Source: Bacillota bacterium (GTDB lineage: Bacteria; Bacillota; SHA-98; UBA4971). Taken from it: 64,000 bases of DNA. How positions within the stretch are numbered: position 1 is the first letter of the stretch; each line of letters begins with the position of its first letter. Where the stretch lies: assembly GCA_035593725.1 (NCBI GenBank), contig DAOSZN010000010.1, positions 2,308 to 66,307 of the forward strand, written 5' to 3'. The position numbers were made by a program, and so were the translations under genes. This document shows, piece by piece, positions 6,865 to 63,850 of this stretch. The notes beneath the pieces are model-generated. The model did no database searches. It saw only the letters and a program-made list of their open reading frames with translations, and was not told the DNA's origin.

Positions 6865-8622
6865 TTAATCCGGCGAAGAACATATCCTCCTAACCCCCGG
6901 TCTGACCTGGGCACGAATCATAAACGTGCGTCCTACGGTATGGAATCCTCGCACCATATTAAAGCTTTCTTCCTCCACTATCTGGATGTTATCAGCCTCA
7001 TCAAGGCCCAGCTTCTTCCCGAACTTGGTTGCCCATGCCATAGCTTCTCTTCTGGCCTGATTGATTCCAAAGAGGACAGGCCTTTCAATTTTGCCTACAT
7101 AGTCCGCTTCCGGCACGGTCATAACACCTAAAGCCGTATCCGCGTGTAGAGTAATCTGAGCTGTCGGACGGCTTGCTGCAGCTCCTATAGCGTTTGCGCT
7201 TTCATAACAGGGAAGGACTTGGTACTTAAGTCCTAAGCTTTCCGCGATAGGAGGGATAAAGACTCCTGCAGGGGCGCCGAGTCCTATCAGCGCCTGAGGA
7301 CGAATATCAGGAGGCGTCAGTATTTCTGAGACGGTATAGACAGGTCGTGATTCAAGATACTCATAGGTCTCTTCAATTGCCACCACAAGCTGCTTGATAA
7401 AAGTATCTATGATCTTTGTGGCCAGCTCTTTTGCGCCTATGCCGTAAATCTCGGCGAAATCAGCCAAAGCCCTTGTGGCCTGCGAAGCGCTGCCGACCTT
7501 CGCTAATCCTAAAGCTACTGCCGCGTCAGTTGGGGTAATACAGTCACCGCCGAAGGCAGCAGGGGTTCCCGCACGCCTCGGGCCTATCTCCAGCTCTATA
7601 TCAAGATCAAGGGTATTATTACCGGAGAGGCTTGCGTCTGTCTCCTTGTTTGATTCCAAACGACGGACGACTTTAATTTCCGAGTCGCCCCCGAGACCTA
7701 TTGATCTGGAGAAAAGGGCGGGCACAAGAGTCTTGTACCCTGCGATTTCAGCGCCTTGCCGCTGGAAGACTGTATCCCCTTTGATTTGCACGGAGATATC
7801 GGTGGTTGTACCCCCGATATCCAAGATTACCGTATTTGAATCAGGATAGGCTGATAAGGCTTCCGCACCCATGATACTTGCTGCCGGTCCTGAAAGAATG
7901 GTTTCAACAGGACGGATCAGGGAATCCTCCAGCTGCATAGTGCCGCCGTCGGCTTTCAACAGGAATACCCGGCCGACGCTCCTGTCGCGAACCATAAACT
8001 TTCGGATCATGTCCACGAAAACAGCCTGATGCCGGGCTATGCTTGCATTAAGATATGAAGTGGCCATGCGGCGCGGGAAGTTGGGACGCCCTGACAGCCT
8101 GTGTCCAAGTGTGATGCGGCCGGTTTTGGAAGCCCTCTTTAGGATAAGCTTTTCGATTTCCAGCTCATGCCCGGGGTTTCTGTGTGAGAACTTGCCCACG
8201 ACAGCCAAGGCGGTTGCACCGCCGGCCTCCGCCTGACTAACAGCGTCCAGGACTTCTTCTTGGTTGATAGGGGCGACTTCACGGCCTCTATGGTCCATTG
8301 AGCCTGACAGCACATAGATTGGAAATCCCGGGTTTAACTCGGCGACGTTCATCCCGGGTCCGGGAGCAGCCAGGACGGCTGTAGGGTCACCTTGTCCTTC
8401 GATGATTGCATTTGTGGATAAGGTTGTGCTGAGGTGCAGTTCAATTGGGTCTGACAGGTCAGGGCGGTCATATGCATTGAGGAGCTTCTCAAATGCCAAG
8501 GTTGTGCTTTCCAGTAGTTGATCATGGCAAGTAGGCACTTTTGCTGTGGCAAGGATCCTTCCTTCAGAAATGAGCGCAGCATCGGTATTAGTTCCGCCAA
8601 CATCTATTCCTACAATGACCAT
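6865..8622 (-). CDS. Hydantoinase/oxoprolinase-family (ASKHA-fold) protein
   Basis: N-terminal MVIVGIDVGGTNTDAAL resembles hydantoinase_A GIDVGGTFTD; 585 aa; SD GAAGGTGAG upstream of ATG. Confidence 0.5.
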   Translation of the reverse strand: MVIVGIDVGGTNTDAALISEGRILATAKVPTCHDQLLESTTLAFEKLLNAYDRPDLSDPIELHLSTTLSTNAIIEGQGDPTAVLAAPGPGMNVAELNPGFPIYVLSGSMDHRGREVAPINQEEVLDAVSQAEAGGATALAVVGKFSHRNPGHELEIEKLILKRASKTGRITLGHRLSGRPNFPRRMATSYLNASIARHQAVFVDMIRKFMVRDRSVGRVFLLKADGGTMQLEDSLIRPVETILSGPAASIMGAEALSAYPDSNTVILDIGGTTTDISVQIKGDTVFQRQGAEIAGYKTLVPALFSRSIGLGGDSEIKVVRRLESNKETDASLSGNNTLDLDIELEIGPRRAGTPAAFGGDCITPTDAAVALGLAKVGSASQATRALADFAEIYGIGAKELATKIIDTFIKQLVVAIEETYEYLESRPVYTVSEILTPPDIRPQALIGLGAPAGVFIPPIAESLGLKYQVLPCYESANAIGAAASRPTAQITLHADTALGVMTVPEADYVGKIERPVLFGINQARREAMAWATKFGKKLGLDEADNIQIVEEESFNMVRGFHTVGRTFMIRAQVRPGVRRICSSPD

Positions 8623-9616: not shown

Positions 9617-9954
9617 GTCTTCCAGACTTGCTAAACTCGATTGTCCAAAGAAGGATTCCCAAAACCAATATGGAATAAACTTAGAGGAAACATTTGGAGG
9701 ATAAGTTCCGGCACTCTCGTATAGACCTGATCATGATGGGTTCAGGCGTTTCTACCAGGAGGCCGCAACCAACCTGGCTACGAGGGACTAGGAGAGGTGT
9801 TATCATATCTCGGTGTTCGCCTCTCATTGCGCCCAAGTCCGTGGTTTGCGACCTCCTTGTATTTTTCTGTCTTTGCATTTGTCATGTCTCACAGTCAGGT
9901 TAACAACGAAAATGGCAAAGTGTGAATTGAGTTTGGGGAGTCATACTGAAAGGA

Positions 9955-11370
9955 GTGGCAAGTATGTCCAAGATTCTCATTCGCGGCGGTCAAGTTGTTA
10001 CCATGAACGAGAAACAAGAAATCCTGGAACATGCTGATATCTTGATTGACGGACGCGTAATTGCCTCTGTAACGCCAATGAGTGAGGGGTCCGGAGGGTC
10101 AAAAGATATGTCGGGAGAAGGCTGTGAGAGCAGCACACGCCTTCATGATGTTGACATGATTATCAATGCGCGGGATAAAGTCGTCATGCCGGGCTTTATT
10201 CAGTCCCATGTCCATCTTTGCCAGACCCTTTTTCGCGGCCAGGCAGATGATCTTGAGCTTATGGATTGGTTGAAGCTTCGCATATGGCCACTGGAGGGTG
10301 CGCATGACGAGGACAGTATTTATTGGTCTGCAATGCTGGGAATCACTGAGCTGATTAAAGGTGGGACTACCTCCATCATTGACATGGAGACCGTCCATCA
10401 CACAGACAGAGCGTTTTCCGCTATTGACGATTCCGGAATTCGTGCCACATCAGGCAAGGTCATGATGGACTACGGGGATGATGTGCCTCCTACACTCATG
10501 GAGTCCACAAAGGATTCATTGAATGAGAGCGAGGCGCTGATGAACAAATGGCACATGCATGACGGAGGCAGGATTAGATACGCTTTTGCGCCGAGGTTCG
10601 TCGTGTCCTGTACAGATCAGCTCCTTGTCCGTGTGCGAGATATGGCGAAGGCCTCCGGTGTACTTGTCCATACCCATGCTTCTGAGAACAAGGGAGAGAT
10701 TGAAGTTGTTATGGCAGACAGGGGCATGAGGAACATCAAGTGCTTAAAGGAACTTGGGCTCTTAGGCCCCGGTGTTGTGCTGGCTCACTGCATTTGGCTG
10801 GATGATGAGGAGATGGAGCTTCTCAGGGATTCCGGGACAAAAGTAGTTCACTGTCCGTCCTCGAACCTTAAGCTTGCTTCAGGTGTGGCAAAAATCCCGG
10901 AAATGCTGGATATAGGTATCCATGTGTCGTTGGGCGCTGACGGAGCGCCGTGTAACAATAACTTGGATGTATTTCAGGAAATGAGACTTGCAGCTTTAAT
11001 CCACAAACCCCGTCTGGGACCTACTGCAATGCCTGCCGGGACAGTCCTGGAAATGGCGACGAAAGGCGGGGCCAAGGCTATGGGAATTGAGGATGAGGTC
11101 GGCAGCATAGAGCCGGGGAAACGCGCGGATATCATCATTCTCGACTTGAATCAGGCGCATGCTGCGCCCACTCAAAATGTAGACCTCATATCCCGCATAG
11201 TATATGAGGCTTCTTCAGCTGATGTTGAGACTACGATTGTCGATGGCCGTGTGCTGATGCATCAGAGGAAACTTACTGCCATCAGTGAGCAAGAAGTGGT
11301 GCGTGAGGCTAACAAAGCCTTAGAAAGAGCGCTCAGACGTTCCGGGTGTGCTCCGTCTGGCGAGAGATGA
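9955..11370 (+). CDS. Amidohydrolase, MtaD (5-methylthioadenosine/S-adenosylhomocysteine deaminase) family
   Basis: HVHLCQT (HxH), HTHASE, HCPSSNLKLASG, LGADGAPCNNNLDVFQEMRLAALI closely parallel the TM0936/MtaD family; start GTG 9955 or ATG 9964. Confidence 0.7.
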   Translation: MASMSKILIRGGQVVTMNEKQEILEHADILIDGRVIASVTPMSEGSGGSKDMSGEGCESSTRLHDVDMIINARDKVVMPGFIQSHVHLCQTLFRGQADDLELMDWLKLRIWPLEGAHDEDSIYWSAMLGITELIKGGTTSIIDMETVHHTDRAFSAIDDSGIRATSGKVMMDYGDDVPPTLMESTKDSLNESEALMNKWHMHDGGRIRYAFAPRFVVSCTDQLLVRVRDMAKASGVLVHTHASENKGEIEVVMADRGMRNIKCLKELGLLGPGVVLAHCIWLDDEEMELLRDSGTKVVHCPSSNLKLASGVAKIPEMLDIGIHVSLGADGAPCNNNLDVFQEMRLAALIHKPRLGPTAMPAGTVLEMATKGGAKAMGIEDEVGSIEPGKRADIIILDLNQAHAAPTQNVDLISRIVYEASSADVETTIVDGRVLMHQRKLTAISEQEVVREANKALERALRRSGCAPSGER

Positions 11371-15547: not shown

Positions 15548-16395
15548 GGTATTTGGGGGGATGGGTTACGTCTTATGTAGAGTTTTCCGATGTAACAAAG
15601 GTATATAGGGATTTCCGGGGTAGGCCTGTGGCCACTGGAATAGAGGGGCTTTCCTTTTCTATCCGGGAGGGGGAGACATTGGCGCTCCTCGGGCCTAACG
15701 GGTCAGGCAAGACTACAGTCATCAAGCTTCTTGCAGGCCTTCTAATTCCCACTTCAGGAAGGATCACAGTCGGTGGGGTCGATGTGATCCAAAATCCCAG
15801 GAAAGCATTGGAAAATGTGGGTGTAATGCTTGGTGACGCGCGTTCAATTTACTGGAGGCTCACTGCGCAAGATAATCTGGAGTACTTTGGTGCGCTAAGG
15901 GGAGTTTGCGGCAAGAAGTTACGGGAACGCATAGGGGCTTTGGCAAGGCTGTTGGATTTCGAAAGCGTTTTGACCAGGCGTGTGGGAGAGCTGTCCCGCG
16001 GTATGCGCCAGAGACTGCTTCTTGCCATAGCGCTGCTGCCTAATCCGCGCCTATTGATACTGGATGAACCTACATTCGGGCTTGATGTGCTATCCAGACA
16101 TGAGATCCGACGACTCCTTCGTGAAATCGTATCAACAAAACACTGCGCCATTGTTATCGCTACGCATCAGATGGAGGAAGCTGAGGAACTTGCCGGCCGC
16201 GTTTGTATCCTCAGGCGAGGCAAGGCAGTGGCTCTGGATACCGTGGAAGGTTTGACAAGGAAGATAAACGGGGCGAGAGACGGTCAGGTTGCATCATCGC
16301 TTTTGCTTGAGGAGGTATTCCTCGAGGTGACGAGGGAAGAAAGCAAAGGAAGGGCGGAAGTATTTCATGACAGGGCCGGCTATCCTTTGGGCTGA
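15523..16395 (+). CDS. ABC transporter ATP-binding protein
   Basis: Walker A GPNGSGKTT, ABC signature LSRGMRQR, Walker B LLILDEPT; overlaps CPBP gene end. Confidence 0.85.
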   Translation: MGGVWPGVRYLGGWVTSYVEFSDVTKVYRDFRGRPVATGIEGLSFSIREGETLALLGPNGSGKTTVIKLLAGLLIPTSGRITVGGVDVIQNPRKALENVGVMLGDARSIYWRLTAQDNLEYFGALRGVCGKKLRERIGALARLLDFESVLTRRVGELSRGMRQRLLLAIALLPNPRLLILDEPTFGLDVLSRHEIRRLLREIVSTKHCAIVIATHQMEEAEELAGRVCILRRGKAVALDTVEGLTRKINGARDGQVASSLLLEEVFLEVTREESKGRAEVFHDRAGYPLG

Positions 16396-27097: not shown

Positions 27098-28327
27098 TTG
27101 GCAGAAAAGGCAAAGGCAGAGCCTACCTATATGTTGGGCACTGACGAGCAACAGCAGTGGATGCGGAAGTATAATTTCGCTCCAAGAGGAATCGGTTTAT
27201 CTGAACCGGGTATTTGTGCGCTTGATGATCCCTTATTCGATGCATACAACATCGCCAAATCATCGTATCAAATCTATCCGGACGTATTCAATGTCGATTA
27301 TGTAGCCAAGGAAGTGGGAATCAAGAAGGAAGAAGTCATCGAACGCATGAGACGAATGTATGATGACAGGTTGGTGATGTACGCTGCCACATCTAACGTG
27401 CAGGTGTTCGGGTTCGGGCTGTATTACTGGTTGGTTAAACTGAGAGAGGGCACCGGAGGCGCGGCAAAGCAGAAGCTGGCAGACTGGTACCAGGCTAAAG
27501 ATGACATTTGCACAGGTTACGAGTTGAGAGGGGACTTTGATTTCTTTAACGGCAATCACATGCGTGTGTTGGATAACCTGCTTGCCGAGGTGATCGAGCC
27601 CTGGAAATTCAATCCGGAAGTGGAGTTTGTGCATCTTTGTCCTATCCGCCGCAATATTCGCGAATCTCATGTGAACATGTTTGACGCGCCGGACGATGGA
27701 TTCAGAAAGCTCTACTGGGGTAACGGCCAGATCGAGTCCTTGGCGAAGATGCAAGACAAAATGGATCTGGTTGACTTAAGGATTATTGAGGCCCTCAATA
27801 TGAAGCGTTCTGCGGAAGAGATGTATGACTTCAAGAAACTTGCTGACATATCCGGACTCGACCCTGAGGCAATGAAAAAGGGCATAGTGGATATCATTGA
27901 CACAAAGAAAATCCTGGCTCCTATTTTCTATCTTAACTGGGAAAAGCTTGGACTGACAAACCATATCTTCGTTATCCGGGTGTTCCAAATCACGCCTGAC
28001 TGCAGAAAAGCCCAAATTGCTGATGAGCTGTCGCATGTGCCGGAATTCAATACAGTCCTTGAATTCACAGATTCATTCTATGATATCATGCTCTTTGCCT
28101 ACAACGAGATATCAGACATAGACGCCTTGCGGAGACTTCTTGATAAGTATGAAGATATCGAGTACATAAGGGAAGCTGACTCCTACAAGCAGTTCCGGCG
28201 GTGGGCATGCCGATTGGACGCGGAGAACGGATTCTGGGAAGAGACTGTAATGACTGACGATTTTCTGCAGGACTGGACGGAAAATCGGACATGCCCGACA
28301 ACTTGCAGTGCAAAGGAGGGGAAATAG
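27098..28327 (+). CDS. Hypothetical 409-aa protein with internal Lrp/AsnC-like HTH segment
   Basis: TTG start after GAGGAGGG SD; central DLVDLRIIEALNMKRSAEEM...GLDPEAMKKGI resembles an AsnC-type HTH; no other motif recognised. Confidence 0.45.
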   Translation: MAEKAKAEPTYMLGTDEQQQWMRKYNFAPRGIGLSEPGICALDDPLFDAYNIAKSSYQIYPDVFNVDYVAKEVGIKKEEVIERMRRMYDDRLVMYAATSNVQVFGFGLYYWLVKLREGTGGAAKQKLADWYQAKDDICTGYELRGDFDFFNGNHMRVLDNLLAEVIEPWKFNPEVEFVHLCPIRRNIRESHVNMFDAPDDGFRKLYWGNGQIESLAKMQDKMDLVDLRIIEALNMKRSAEEMYDFKKLADISGLDPEAMKKGIVDIIDTKKILAPIFYLNWEKLGLTNHIFVIRVFQITPDCRKAQIADELSHVPEFNTVLEFTDSFYDIMLFAYNEISDIDALRRLLDKYEDIEYIREADSYKQFRRWACRLDAENGFWEETVMTDDFLQDWTENRTCPTTCSAKEGK

Positions 28328-28328
28328 A

Positions 28329-29759
28329 ATGAAAATAGATGCCCCTCGGAAATATGTGGTAGATAGCTTGCAGTACGCGTTGAACCCTTCGTCCATAGCT
28401 GTAGTGGGAGCTTCGCGTTATGACGCGAAAGTCGGTTACAAAGTCATAGAGGGACTCAGCAAGTGGGGCTATAAAGGTAAGATCTACCCTGTGAACCCTC
28501 GCGCTGACAAGGTCCATGGTTTGCCTGCATATAAGACTCTTTTGGATATTCCGGAACCTGTAGATCTCGTATTTGTAGCAGTGCCGGCATTCCTTGTGAA
28601 GATGGTATTGGAACAAGCAGTCGCCAAGAAGGCAAAAATGGCGGTTATCGCAACAAGCGCTTTCAAGGAGATCGGCCGTGGTGAGCTGCAGGATTCTCTG
28701 ACAAACTATTGCAGAAAACATAAACTGCCTCTGATTGGACCGAATCTGGTCGGTATGGGAAGCCCTTATCTCAACTTCAACTGCGGATTCATTCCGTACC
28801 TACCTATTCCGGGTCCGGTGGCTATGATATCCCAGTCAGGAGCAAACCTTCTTGCCGCCCTTGGTACGTCCAAGACACAGAACTTCGGGATGAGCTTTTT
28901 CATCGGGCTGGGCAACAAGGCTGACGTGGATTTCTCAGAGTTCATAATCTACGGTAAGAACGATCCTTACACGAAGTGTATTGCAACTTACATCGAAGGG
29001 CTGGATTCTCCTGAGGCATATATCAAGGCGTGCCGCGAGACAGTCCCGGAAAAGCCGGTGGTAGCGCTCAAAGTCGGCGGGTCAAAGATAGGCGTGAAAG
29101 CAGCGTTTGCGCATACCGCGTCAGAAAACATAGGGACGGACGATGCATACTATGACGATATCTTTGAGAAAGCGGGAGTCATCAGGGCCACAACCTGGCA
29201 GGAGTTCCTTGACGTAGCCCTTGCCCTCGGACAGCAGCCTCCTCTGAAAGGCGACAATGTTGTGATGATAACCAACGGAGGCGGATCAGGGCTCTTGGCT
29301 TGCGATCACTTTGAGCGCATAGGTATGCCTCTACGGGAGCTCAAGGACATCTCCTTCATGTTAAGCATGAAAATACGCGCGTACATGCCTATGTTCGGAT
29401 CGCCCTTGAATCCGGTGGATATCTCAGGCACAGCGTCGCCTGTGCAGTACAAAGGTGCGTTGCACCAGGCAATGCGGGACAGCAATGTAGATGGAGTGCT
29501 GTGCTCCATTTGTCCGACAGCAGTTACTGATGTGCCTGCTGTAGTGGATATTGCCATTCAAATGCACGAAACATATAAGTATCTGGGGAAGCCGTTCATT
29601 ATGGAATGCCAGGGCGGGGCGGAGTGCCACGAGGCTATCATGAAGCTACGTGCACATGGAATACCTGCTTACCCCACAGCTGAGCAGTCAGTCAACGCCA
29701 TGGTAGGCTTAAGGAAATACGGTAAGATACTGGAGAAACAAGGGGTAAACGTTGGATAA
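28329..29759 (+). CDS. ADP-forming acyl-CoA synthetase alpha-type (CoA-binding + succinyl-CoA-synthetase-like domains)
   Basis: IAVVGAS...KVGYKV..., PVNP, VFVAVPA CoA-binding Rossmann pattern; AAGGAGGGG SD; translationally coupled to the upstream gene. Confidence 0.7.
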   Translation: MKIDAPRKYVVDSLQYALNPSSIAVVGASRYDAKVGYKVIEGLSKWGYKGKIYPVNPRADKVHGLPAYKTLLDIPEPVDLVFVAVPAFLVKMVLEQAVAKKAKMAVIATSAFKEIGRGELQDSLTNYCRKHKLPLIGPNLVGMGSPYLNFNCGFIPYLPIPGPVAMISQSGANLLAALGTSKTQNFGMSFFIGLGNKADVDFSEFIIYGKNDPYTKCIATYIEGLDSPEAYIKACRETVPEKPVVALKVGGSKIGVKAAFAHTASENIGTDDAYYDDIFEKAGVIRATTWQEFLDVALALGQQPPLKGDNVVMITNGGGSGLLACDHFERIGMPLRELKDISFMLSMKIRAYMPMFGSPLNPVDISGTASPVQYKGALHQAMRDSNVDGVLCSICPTAVTDVPAVVDIAIQMHETYKYLGKPFIMECQGGAECHEAIMKLRAHGIPAYPTAEQSVNAMVGLRKYGKILEKQGVNVG

Positions 29760-61311: not shown

Positions 61312-61590
61312 ATGTCTGATTCACGAAAAGCGATAAATGAGAAGATGCTCATGCTATTAGGGTTTAACTGCGCAACCGGTATGAATTACGATTTAAAGAC
61401 GGATATTCGCTTGGCAAAGCATGCAGGATTTGAACTATTGGAGATTATTTGGGCTGCCAAACTGAACAAGTGCTTGGAGAGTAATTCAGCCTGGAGTCTG
61501 AAACAGCTGTTTGGCGAGGCCGGTATTAAACTTGAAATTCTTTGGGGAGAGGTATTGAGTTACCGACTTACCGATGCTATCATAGAATAA
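61312..61590 (+). pseudogene. Truncated N-terminal fragment of a xylose-isomerase-like TIM-barrel sugar phosphate isomerase/epimerase
   Basis: 92-aa ORF with LGFNCATGMNYDLKTDIRLAKHAGFELLEI typical of the family N-terminus, then stop; no continuation in any frame. Confidence 0.4.
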
Positions 61591-61599
61591 ATTCATAGC

Positions 61600-61942
61600 G
61601 TGGATCAAGACAAGGACGATGAAGAGGAGGAGTAAGCCGGTGAAAGAGCAAAAAGCGAGCTCTGACCGGTGAGAGGGGGCCTCTGTAGCCGAGCTGAAGT
61701 TCGCCTCGGAGTCGCCTGTTGAAGCCTGTGCCGGGATTTAAGGCTCGATGGCCGAGGATGCGCAGGTGGTAGGCGGTGCCGGTGTTCCCACCGTTATACG
61801 GGAAACCCATCGGGATCTAAGATATCAGGATCTGATATGATGGTCCCCGTGGGGTAAAGTGGGCATTTGTGCCAAGCGGAGTGGTACCGCGGGAGGATAG
61901 CGCCTTTCGTCTCTATGAACGAAAGGCGTGTTTCTTTTTTCT
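61600..61942 (+). promoter_or_regulatory. T-box riboswitch leader (tRNA-sensing antitermination)
   Basis: Conserved T-box sequence AGUGGUACCGCGG at 61880-61893 immediately followed by the terminator; multiple upstream stem-loops. Confidence 0.6.
61901..61942 (+). terminator. Rho-independent terminator (T-box expression platform)
   Basis: 10-bp perfect stem CGCCTTTCGT/ACGAAAGGCG, 8-nt loop, followed by TGTTTCTTTTTTCT. Confidence 0.65.
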
Positions 61943-62042
61943 ATAGCCTTCATGCGGGTAACAAGGCAGAAGCGGAGAAAACGCCTAATTGACATGGTGA
62001 TAAGGTGTCATGCCTCAGGAGATAGGAGAGAGGAGGATTCGC

Positions 62043-63353
62043 ATGATATGGAGTCCGGAATATGAGTGTATGTCCCGTGAGAGACTGGAACAGCTACAGA
62101 TTAAGCGGTTAAAGGCCACGTTGCGAAGGGTGAGGGATTGTGTGCCTTTTTACAGAGCTCGTCTGGATGAGGCAGGAATAGAGCCTGATGACATCTGTTC
62201 TCTTGACGATCTTACTCACATCCCTTTTACCACCAAGGAAGACCTGAGGGCAAACTACCCCTTTGGATTATTTGCCGTCCCTGCGGAAGAAGTTATGCGG
62301 ATCCATGCGTCTTCAGGCACGACGGGGAAGATGACTGTCGTCGGGTACACAAAAGGAGATATCAGCGTTTGGTCTGAAGTGATGGCGAGAGCGCTTGCGT
62401 CAGGCGGGGTGACGTCTAAGGACTTGATACATATTGCCTATGGCTACGGGCTCTTTACCGGGGGGCTTGGTGTCCATTACGGCGGTGAACTTCTTGGCGC
62501 CACAGTTGTCCCTGTCTCAGGCGGAAACACAAAGAGACAGTTACAGATTATGCAAGACTTCGGCACCACTGTCCTTGCTTGTACTCCTTCATACGCCTTA
62601 TACATGGCTGAAGCTGCGAAGGACGAAGGAATAGACATGAATGGGTTATCTCTTCGAGTAGGCATTCTCGGGGCTGAACCTTGGTCTGACAATATGCGCA
62701 AGGAAATTGAAGAGAAGCTGGGGATTGAGGCATTTGACATATACGGCATGTCTGAGATCATGGGCCCCGGGGTGGCGATTGAGTGCTCAGAGCATGAGGG
62801 GCTTCATGTGTTTGAAGACCACTTTCTTGTGGAAGTCGTTGACCCCGACACAGGTTGTGTGTTGCCGCCCGGCGCAAAAGGTGAGCTTGTATTTACGTCC
62901 CTTACAAAGGAAGCCTTCCCAATTATCCGATATCGGACCCGTGACATAAGCATTCTCAACTACCGGCCATGCGCTTGTGGAAGGACCCACGTCAGGATGC
63001 ATCGAGTCCTCGGACGGACTGATGATATGCTGGTGGTTCGCGGTGTCAATGTATTCCCGTCCCAGATTGAAAGCGTGCTCCTGGAAATCAGCGGAACAGA
63101 GCCTCATTACCTGATCGTCGTAGACCGTCTCAATAACCTTGATGAGCTCGAAATATGGGTGGAAGTCTCTGACGAGTTATTTTCAGACCAGGTCAAGTGC
63201 TTGGAGGATTTGGGCAAAAGAATCAGAAGCTCTCTTGAAAGCGCATTGGGCATCTCTGTCCGTGTGAAGTTGGTGGAGCCGAAGACTATACCGAGGAGTG
63301 AAGGGAAGGCCAGGCGGGTTGTGGATAGGCGCGAGGTTTATCCTGAAGGCTAG
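62043..63353 (+). CDS. Phenylacetate-CoA ligase family (PaaK/coenzyme F390 synthetase-like aryl-CoA ligase)
   Basis: [20 protein letters not shown]-binding motif, PaaK N-terminal pattern, GAGAGGAGG SD; longest ORF starts 62010. Confidence 0.8.
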
Positions 63354-63421
63354 TTGTGGTAAGGAATCTGCGCTTTGTTGCGAAGACAAAACCAAGAAGG
63401 GGAAAGCGAGGGTGTGCTACT

Positions 63422-63850
63422 ATGAAGGCAAAGCAGCTTTCGATATTTCTGGAGAATAAAGTAGGTCGTCTTGCGGAAGTCACCGATGTCCTCGGGGACA
63501 AGGATATCAATATCAGAGCCCTCTCTTTGGCTGACACGTCAGACTTCGGGGTGTTACGGTTGATAGTTGACGATCCCGACCGTGCCGAGAAGGCGCTGAG
63601 AGAGGATGGGTATACAGTCAGCATCACCGAAGTCATTGCAGTCAAGGTGCCGGATAAGCCAGGGGGACTGAGCCGGGTGTTGAAGTCCTTTGCTGATCTG
63701 GAAGTCAATGTCGAATACATGTACGCTTTTGCCGGCAAAAACGGAGACAATGCAGTTGTAGTCTTCAGAGTCGATGACCCGGAAAGAGCGATCCCCATTT
63801 TGCAACAGCATGGGGTGGCGCTTCTGACAGAAGACGAGATCTATCAATAG
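63422..63850 (+). CDS. Tandem ACT-domain protein
   Basis: Two ACT-like beta-alpha-beta-beta-alpha-beta repeats (LSIFLENKVGRLAEV..., LSRVLKSFADLEVNVEYMYAF); commonly paired with PaaK-like ligases. Confidence 0.7.
   Translation: MKAKQLSIFLENKVGRLAEVTDVLGDKDINIRALSLADTSDFGVLRLIVDDPDRAEKALREDGYTVSITEVIAVKVPDKPGGLSRVLKSFADLEVNVEYMYAFAGKNGDNAVVVFRVDDPERAIPILQQHGVALLTEDEIYQ

Follow-up and report, generated by a model that had tools for sequence, protein, structure and literature searches.

Why should a T-box riboswitch, an element that characteristically controls genes raising the level of charged cognate tRNA (PMC2494555), stand in front of a gene for an arylacetate-activating enzyme? The question is raised by a 64,000-nt stretch of DNA (hereafter, the window) from a Bacillota bacterium (contig DAOSZN010000010.1, positions 2,308 to 66,307 of the forward strand), in which a T-box leader with a phenylalanine (Phe) specifier precedes a two-gene operon encoding a phenylacetate-coenzyme A (CoA) ligase (PaaK)-family enzyme and a protein with paired ACT domains. 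On balance, and with reservations set out below, we favor the reading that a Phe T-box controls this ligase-ACT operon, such that Phe starvation would induce the activation of phenylacetate toward Phe. Unless a locus is named, all positions refer to the window.

A complete T-box leader upstream of the ligase operon

Scanning the whole window with default Rfam settings, under which the T-box family RF00230 carries a gathering score of 93 bits, returned no T-box match anywhere in the window and reported solely a purine riboswitch. Re-searching positions 61500-62100 with cmscan under permissive E-value thresholds yielded an RF00230 match covering the whole model (positions 1-219 of 219) at 61610-61917 (+), with 71 bits and an E-value of 2.2e-15. 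The default scan thus missed the leader because its score falls below the gathering score. An earlier inspection of the letters alone (the sequence-only reading) had proposed a T-box leader at this place and named the lack of an RF00230 hit as grounds for dropping it; formally, this is what the gathering threshold gave, a result overturned by the full-length match and by the above-threshold scores of orthologous leaders. The low score of the window leader is likely due to two lineage-specific expansions that the covariance model takes as insertions, namely a Stem II whose distal arm is lengthened (within 61713-61777) and a stable extra hairpin at 61806-61853. The features of the leader and operon are as follows, with L081 denoting an orthologous locus described in the next section.

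61555-61583 (+), SigA/sigma-70-type promoter-like site: −35 TTGAGT (61555-61560), 17-nt spacer, TG-extended −10 TATCAT (61578-61583); 9 of 12 matches
61616-61712 (+), Stem I, from the cmscan alignment and covariation among eight leaders
61618-61622 and 61708-61711 (+), kink-turn (K-turn) of Stem I, GAUGA / GGAG
61624-61627 and 61704-61707 (+), lower helix of Stem I, GAGG / CCUC
61631-61634 (+), 5′ side of the specifier loop, AGUA
61654-61659 (+), AG bulge AGCGAG; the distal loop carries GGUGAGA
61696-61703 (+), 3′ strand of the specifier bulge, GAA-G-UUC-G: S-turn GAA (61696-61698), spacer G (61699), UUC (61700-61702), purine G (61703)
61713-61777 (+), Stem II with S-turn (GAA 61721-61723 / GGUA 61768-61771) and extended distal arm; fold −27.8 kcal/mol
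61780-61804 (+), Stem IIA/B pseudoknot: IIA CGGUG/CACCG (61780-61793), F-box CCGUUA (61791-61796); invariant relative to L081
61806-61853 (+), extra hairpin linking Stem IIA/B to Stem III, lineage-specific, −24.8 kcal/mol; longer in L081, shorter in others
61856-61875 (+), Stem III, GGCA (61862-61865) / UGCC (61870-61873), flanked by AAAGUG and AA purines; from the cmscan alignment
61878-61914 (+), antiterminator: A1 GGAG (61878-61881) / CUCU (61911-61914), A2 61889-61896 / 61903-61910
61882-61888 (+), T-box bulge UGGUACC, 7 nt; UGGU is complementary to a tRNA 3′-ACCA end with discriminator A73
61900-61940 (+), intrinsic terminator and U-tract: 11-bp stem (61900-61929) followed by GUUUCUUUUUU (61930-61940)
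62030-62036 (+), ribosome-binding site GAGGAGG, 6 nt ahead of the ATG at 62043; homologues begin at the same residue
62043-63353 (+), PaaK-family arylacetate-CoA ligase, 436 amino acids; Pfam AMP-binding and AMP-binding_C_2
63422-63850 (+), ACT-domain pair protein, 142 amino acids, closing the two-gene operon; Pfam ACT_8 (PF19571), E 5e-29

These features comprise what defines the T-box family: a covariance-model match, the Stem I modules, a specifier followed by a purine, Stems II, IIA/B and III, and an antiterminator opposed to a terminator. We therefore hold it to be practically certain that 61610-61940 (+) is a genuine, complete transcriptional T-box leader. Several details of the sequence-only reading were sharpened along the way. 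The T-box core is present as AGUGGUACCGCGG, at 61880-61892 instead of 61880-61893; the terminator and its U-tract exist, with 11 pairs in the stem where 10 bp had been counted; and the promoter-like TTGAGT-N17-TATCAT site was recovered at 61555-61583, now with a TG-extended −10 element. Stem I, previously judged not to fold unambiguously, is resolved by the cmscan alignment and the covariation among eight leaders. The second half of the IIA/B pseudoknot, a pairing of loop UUCC (61785-61788) with GGAA (61801-61804), is predicted from complementarity.

The 5′ arm of the terminator overlaps the 3′ strands of the antiterminator. As both structures require the shared strand 61903-61914, they are mutually exclusive folds. 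Indeed, the minimum free energy (MFE) fold of the segment contains the terminator (−41.4 kcal/mol), and the antiterminator appears only when the 3′ arm of the terminator is withheld. In the MFE fold of the 3′ domain, CCCGUGG (61846-61852), upstream of Stem III, also pairs with CCGCGGG (61887-61893) of the T-box; this modeled pairing may constitute an extra 'anti-antiterminator' helix that reinforces the OFF state.

Orthologous leaders are conserved in front of the same gene

Homologues of the ligase were located in genomes, metagenomes and assemblies, and the DNA surrounding them gave 171 loci. Scanning genomes and metagenomes yielded mainly relatives of at most 67% identity from other phyla, and only L001, L015 and L091 added T-box leaders. 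In total, a T-box precedes the orthologous ligase in seven further distinct contigs, giving eight leaders with that of the window; five of the eight exceed the RF00230 gathering score, and the window, L081 and L082-84 remain below it.

L015, ligase 62% identical to that of the window, RF00230 117.6 bits
L001, ligase 67% identical, RF00230 105.4 bits
L089, Hydrogenispora ethanolica, RF00230 103.8 bits
L087/88, RF00230 101.9 bits
L091, RF00230 99.4 bits
L082-84, RF00230 87 bits
L081, ligase 89% identical, RF00230 75.1 bits

The enlarged Stem II arm and the linker hairpin are shown in the two lowest scorers, the window and L081. Between these two, the Stem I motifs, the specifier, the IIA/B pseudoknot, Stem III, the T-box and the 5′ arm of the terminator are essentially invariant, whereas the distal Stem II arm (above an invariant base), the linker hairpin and the spacer behind the terminator have diverged strongly, a pattern that would be expected under selection on a riboswitch. 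The lower Stem I helix is intact in all eight leaders, and at two of its pairs both partners have changed in a compensatory way (GAGG/CCUC versus GGAG/CUCC in L015); in the eight-leader Stem I alignment the K-turn stem and the upper helix covary too. L081 retains the hexamers and spacing of the window promoter, and just upstream of each homologous leader lies a separate promoter-like TTGxxx-N17/18-TATAAT site.

These comparisons also bear on the possibility that the leader has decayed, leaving the operon constitutively expressed or constitutively terminated. The subthreshold score, the two large insertions and the existence of relatives (L085/L090) that lost or never had a leader would be compatible with decay. 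Yet all conserved modules are intact, functional positions are invariant relative to L081 where the flanks have diverged, the helices covary, and promoter, terminator and alternative pairing are preserved, making a non-functional T-box very improbable.

Neighbor-joining places the T-box-linked ligases close together in a single subclade, next to which the T-box-less L085/L090 fall, with L015 as an outlier; the Bacillota neighbors of this subclade are linked to iorAB, genes to which we return below. In the closest T-box-less relatives (L085/L086/L090; 74% identity, ~7800-8006), a DegV gene immediately precedes the ligase-ACT pair; the short spacer between them holds no riboswitch, and genes for a flavodoxin-like flavin mononucleotide (FMN) reductase and ThiG/AIRS-like proteins lie 3′ of the pair. 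As a separate observation, an array of 17/34-nt tandem repeats (7824-7937; consensus GCAACAGATAGAGTAGC..., ~3-6 copies) separates the terminator of the T-box from the start codon of the ligase in L081; the window has no such array, and its spacer is unrelated.

The specifier codon reads UUC (Phe)

The frame in which the leader presents its codon depends on where the specifier bulge ends. This boundary is fixed because the closing helix, 61624-61627/61704-61707, covaries. Within the bulge, GAAGUUC followed by a purine is identical in all eight leaders, the purine being G except for an A in L001. In the '+0' frame preferred by the T-box database TBDB, the codon is formed by nucleotides 2-4, counted from the bulge's 3′ end. 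Specifier codons in T-boxes are immediately followed, on the 3′ side, by a conserved purine. UUC with its following G fits this rule, whereas GUU would have a C next. UUC had been put forward as a candidate from a stem-loop presenting GAAGUUCGCC; this segment lies at 61696-61705, one base higher than first given, and the candidate itself was borne out by the bulge boundary, the positional rule, a calibration on a threonyl-tRNA synthetase (ThrRS) leader and the frequencies in TBDB. We are accordingly confident that the specifier is UUC at 61700-61702 and the leader Phe-specific.

The competing frame deserves attention, as a GUU codon would denote valine (Val) and the ligase would then activate a branched-chain acid, e.g. 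isobutyrate, for conversion via 2-oxoisovalerate to valine by reductive carboxylation. The cmscan register does set GAA directly ahead of GUU, and the discriminator A73 of tRNA-Val would be compatible with UGGU as well. Moreover, all eight leaders have the same G in front of UUC, so that leader comparison alone cannot settle between GUU and UUC. Against it speak the C, instead of the conserved purine, after GUU and the fact that TBDB treats the −1 frame as non-preferred. The ThrRS leader provides a direct calibration. L087 contains a T-box before a gene that encodes ThrRS, as judged by its TGS, tRNA_SAD, tRNA-synt_2b and HGTP_anticodon domains; its bulge reads ...G-ACC-A followed by helix CCUU, i.e. 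the same G-NNC-R architecture as the ligase leaders, and the −1 frame would give Asp, mismatching the gene. This leader (L087 15832-16084 (+); 57.5 bits, below the gathering threshold) had its Stem I misaligned by cmscan and was re-read by hand, placing the true specifier at ~15948-15955 after an extra hairpin. In TBDB, UUC is found in 1465 T-boxes, 1323 of them with a matching host tRNA, and GUU is rare (126 T-boxes, 0 with a matching tRNA). The cargo argues likewise: the ligase is far nearer to PaaK than to short-chain 2-hydroxyisobutyryl-CoA synthetase, and the oxidoreductase neighboring it in other loci is of the two-subunit IorAB type. It is thus the purine rule, together with the ThrRS calibration and the database priors, that speaks for excluding the −1 frame, and by these we judge the valine alternative highly unlikely.

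A further option is dual tRNA specificity through overlapping codons (GUU and UUC, or UUC and UCG) in the 8-nt specifier strand. TBDB does allow for alternative frames and multi-tRNA reading in longer bulges; here, the 8 nt equal the Rfam consensus length (GAAauuca) with no enlargement, and UUC alone satisfies both the purine rule and the NNC preference, so that dual reading appears extremely improbable.

Two candidates were discarded during this analysis. Extra pairs proposed by RNAalifold within the specifier loop (A18-U93 and others) are invariant, lack covariation and clash with the S-turn and the presentation of the codon. A second T-box in L001 (16636-16904 (+); specifier ACC (Thr), bulge UGGA) was considered as a frame calibrator and rejected, as its downstream gene is not an obvious aminoacyl-tRNA synthetase gene; the next recognizable open reading frame (ORF) is NUDIX-hydrolase-like, identified by eye only (GHIESGETPxxAALREVQEESGL).

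The operon encodes a PaaK-family ligase and an ACT-domain pair protein

The first gene behind the leader had been described as a phenylacetate-CoA-ligase-family gene, and both its domains and its match to PaaK structures agree. Its start was corrected from 62010 to the ATG at 62043 behind GAGGAGG. Among structures in the PDB, the ligase resembles PaaK1 (2y27, E 3.9e-139) and a Bacteroides protein (4r1l, E 2e-126), and 2-hydroxyisobutyryl-CoA synthetase is far more distant (E 6e-64). Scored against the PaaK model TIGR02155, it reached 580.4 bits and thereby stayed short of the equivalog cutoff of 646.3, which is why we file it as a PaaK-family member and not as a PaaK equivalog. A list of the residues lining the aryl pocket of PaaK1 was not found in reviews. 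Homology, the Phe specifier and the iorAB linkage together suggest phenylacetate to be the most likely substrate.

The second gene encodes the anticipated tandem-ACT protein: two ACT domains in tandem match ACT_8 at 63422-63850 with 101 bits (cutoff 23.5). Its match in the PDB, 2f06 (E 2e-35), is annotated only as a 'conserved hypothetical protein'. The operon comprises these two genes, since convergently oriented genes for methyl-accepting chemotaxis proteins (chemoreceptors) follow 3′ of the ACT gene. In ~150 of the 171 loci, which span many phyla, the ligase gene is directly followed by an ACT gene, and the ACT protein is probably the amino-acid-binding partner of the ligase module.

Linkage to iorAB points to a probable phenylacetate salvage

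In ~65 of the 171 loci (38%), iorA-iorB, encoding an arylpyruvate:ferredoxin oxidoreductase, adjoins the ligase-ACT pair, usually directly upstream, as in the iorA-iorB-ligase-ACT string of L043. IorA combines POR_N, TPP_enzyme_C and two Fer4 domains, and IorB consists of a POR domain. In methanogens, a ligase and an indolepyruvate ferredoxin oxidoreductase (IOR) are documented to form a route from aryl acids to aromatic amino acids (PMC6737245), and aryl-acid assimilation into aromatic amino acids in these organisms is also described, citing Porat et al., in PMC4162585. The direction of the ligase reaction can be considered separately: AMP-forming ligases are effectively irreversible and drive CoA-ester formation, not acid release. 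Taken together, the logic of T-box-controlled genes, the irreversibility of the ligase and the methanogen route support an anabolic direction. The salvage of aryl acids by reductive carboxylation, suggested by the sequence-only reading, thus gains new support from the neighborhood of ligase-ACT in other lineages; the oxidoreductase is absent from the window. We lean, with modest conviction, toward phenylacetate-to-Phe salvage as the role of the operon.

Several observations weigh against this interpretation as a whole. No iorAB genes lie near any of the T-box-linked ligase copies. Within the 64-kb window, neither 4Fe-4S/thiamine pyrophosphate (TPP) motifs nor tblastn with IorA and IorB of L043 revealed an IOR or pyruvate ferredoxin oxidoreductase (POR), and no ferredoxin-type or TPP motif occurs anywhere in it. 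L015 has the T-box and the ligase and lacks the ACT gene; the close relatives L085/L086/L090 lack the T-box. To these are added the window leader's score below the gathering threshold, the ligase's score below the PaaK equivalog cutoff and the unvarying G before the specifier, all given above.

Some of the same observations would fit a real Phe T-box whose operon has another role, be it a different aryl or acyl substrate (indoleacetate, 4-hydroxyphenylacetate or phenylpropionate) or Phe-linked regulation or detoxification. The missed equivalog cutoff, the absence of an IOR from the window and from the vicinity of every T-box copy, and the lack of functional annotation among the matches of the ACT partner are all compatible with it, and the PaaK family does have members with substrates other than phenylacetate (PMC8388817). 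Speaking against such a role are the strong iorAB linkage in other loci, the established enzymology of AMP-forming ligases, which favors formation of the CoA ester over release of the acid, and the norm that T-boxes raise the pool of cognate charged tRNA (PMC2494555). We regard this alternative as unlikely, albeit one to be kept in mind.

Two further genes are recorded here in their own right. In L043, the gene after iorA-iorB-ligase-ACT (9817-10941 (+)) encodes a Peripla_BP_6 substrate-binding protein of an ABC transporter (branched-chain/aromatic amino-acid type), which hints at coupled uptake. In the window, an ORF at 28308-29759 (+) combines CoA_binding_2, Succ_CoA_lig and Ligase_CoA_2, the architecture of the alpha subunit of an ADP-forming acyl-CoA synthetase; such enzymes serve the opposite, acid-releasing and ATP-yielding direction of 2-oxoacid fermentation.

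A model for control by tRNA-Phe

For the favored Phe-salvage reading, we propose the following sequence of events. Transcription from the SigA-type promoter at 61555-61583 would start a leader of ~350 nt that acts as a class I transcriptional T-box. Stem I would show UUC to the anticodon GAA of tRNA-Phe, with the distal platform stacking on the tRNA elbow. If the tRNA is uncharged, its 3′-ACCA end would pair with UGGU in the bulge, stabilize the antiterminator and permit read-through into the operon; if it is charged, the 11-bp terminator (61900-61929) would form and transcription would end. This response to tRNA is deduced from the sequence of the leader; tRNA genes are absent from the 64-kb window. 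The ligase would then convert phenylacetate to phenylacetyl-CoA, which an arylpyruvate (indolepyruvate-type) ferredoxin oxidoreductase, presumably encoded elsewhere in the same genome, would reductively carboxylate to phenylpyruvate, with transamination to Phe as the final step. The direction of flux, like the presence of an IOR in this genome, is presumed.

Relation to known systems

The RNA is an ordinary member of the T-box family with lineage-specific expansions; its cargo is the unusual part. With the Phe T-boxes of pheS-pheT operons (e.g. Staphylococcus xylosus pheS, listed in TBDB with UUC, UGGU and tRNA-Phe GAA) the window leader shares membership in RF00230, the specifier, the bulge and the terminator/antiterminator logic. 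In contrast to these, its Stem II is extended and a further hairpin sits in the linker, and it controls an arylacetate-CoA ligase and an ACT protein rather than an aminoacyl-tRNA synthetase, de novo biosynthesis or a transporter. T-boxes before side-route suppliers of the cognate amino acid are known (PMC2494555), and the window follows the same pattern of recruitment; what sets it apart is the presumed route, in which a fermentation-type aryl acid would be salvaged by reductive carboxylation.

The ligase family is likewise that of iorAB-paaK(-ACT) clusters and of the phenylacetyl-CoA ligase accompanying Ior in methanogens (IOR MMP0713/0714 in Methanococcus maripaludis), and the ACT partner is shared with the iorA-iorB-paaK-ACT strings found in L043 and ~38% of the loci. 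In the T-box clade, however, the ligase-ACT pair stands apart from iorAB, under a promoter and a riboswitch of its own. Aerobic PaaK enzymes (PaaK1/PaaK2 of Burkholderia cenocepacia, PDB 2y27/2y4n/2y4o) are homologous to the window ligase over the full length, with an 11-residue region conserved; unlike there, paaABCDE or other paa catabolic genes are not found near the window ligase, and its control would be exerted by amino-acid starvation, not by the substrate.

A T-box before a phenylacetate-CoA-ligase-type gene is not mentioned in the literature we searched; an unpublished database record is likely and an earlier mention in a review possible. The pairing is absent from Wels et al. 2008, from the RegPrecise-based regulon tables and supplements of Sun et al. 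2013, and from the TBDB paper and its supplements. Nor did the literature searched link aryl-acid salvage by reductive carboxylation to T-boxes, and searches for iorA, iorB and paaK together, or for ACT with ligase and indolepyruvate, returned nothing.

Surroundings of the operon and further riboswitches

Upstream of the leader, a 92-amino-acid ORF (61312-61590 (+)) corresponds to the N-terminal ~60 residues of a 275-amino-acid AP_endonuc_2 gene (xylose-isomerase-like TIM barrel) in L081, with 75% identity, and the T-box promoter overlaps the end of this truncated frame. Compared with L081, the window is missing the rest of the AP_endonuc_2 gene and the VIT1 gene that follows it; a deletion has therefore moved the creatininase cluster up to the T-box promoter.

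The purine riboswitch reported by the default scan is an RF00167 aptamer at 9697-9800 (+), which at 48.7 bits exceeds its gathering score. About 150 nt downstream of it begins an ORF of the amidohydrolase family (9955-11370), which may be a gene of the guanine/adenine deaminase type. In H. ethanolica (L089 15623-15722 (+)), an S-adenosylmethionine (SAM)-I riboswitch of 84.9 bits was noted upstream of two genes for pyridoxal-phosphate enzymes of Cys/Met metabolism.

Implications

The leader shows that true T-boxes with lineage-specific insertions escape default Rfam thresholds. Its wider interest lies in the genes it controls. In anaerobes, PaaK-like ligases with their ACT partner rank with the most conserved gene pairs, and their annotation usually follows aerobic phenylacetate catabolism. 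Induction by uncharged tRNA-Phe would instead point to the making of Phe, not its degradation, as the use of this pair. To our knowledge, aryl-acid reductive carboxylation in bacteria is an old observation of rumen microbiology that has come without gene-level regulation data. More tentatively, it is possible that the widespread ligase-ACT(-iorAB) module is anabolic, serving starvation-induced salvage of environmental phenylacetate to Phe under two-tier control, with the T-box as the first regulatory evidence. If so, the charging of tRNA-Phe would set transcription and the ACT pair would sense the free amino acid at the level of the enzyme, and members of this Bacillota clade might draw part of their Phe supply from the aryl acids of their neighbors. 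The T-box thus offers both a regulatory argument and an experimental handle for the role of a widespread and poorly understood gene pair.

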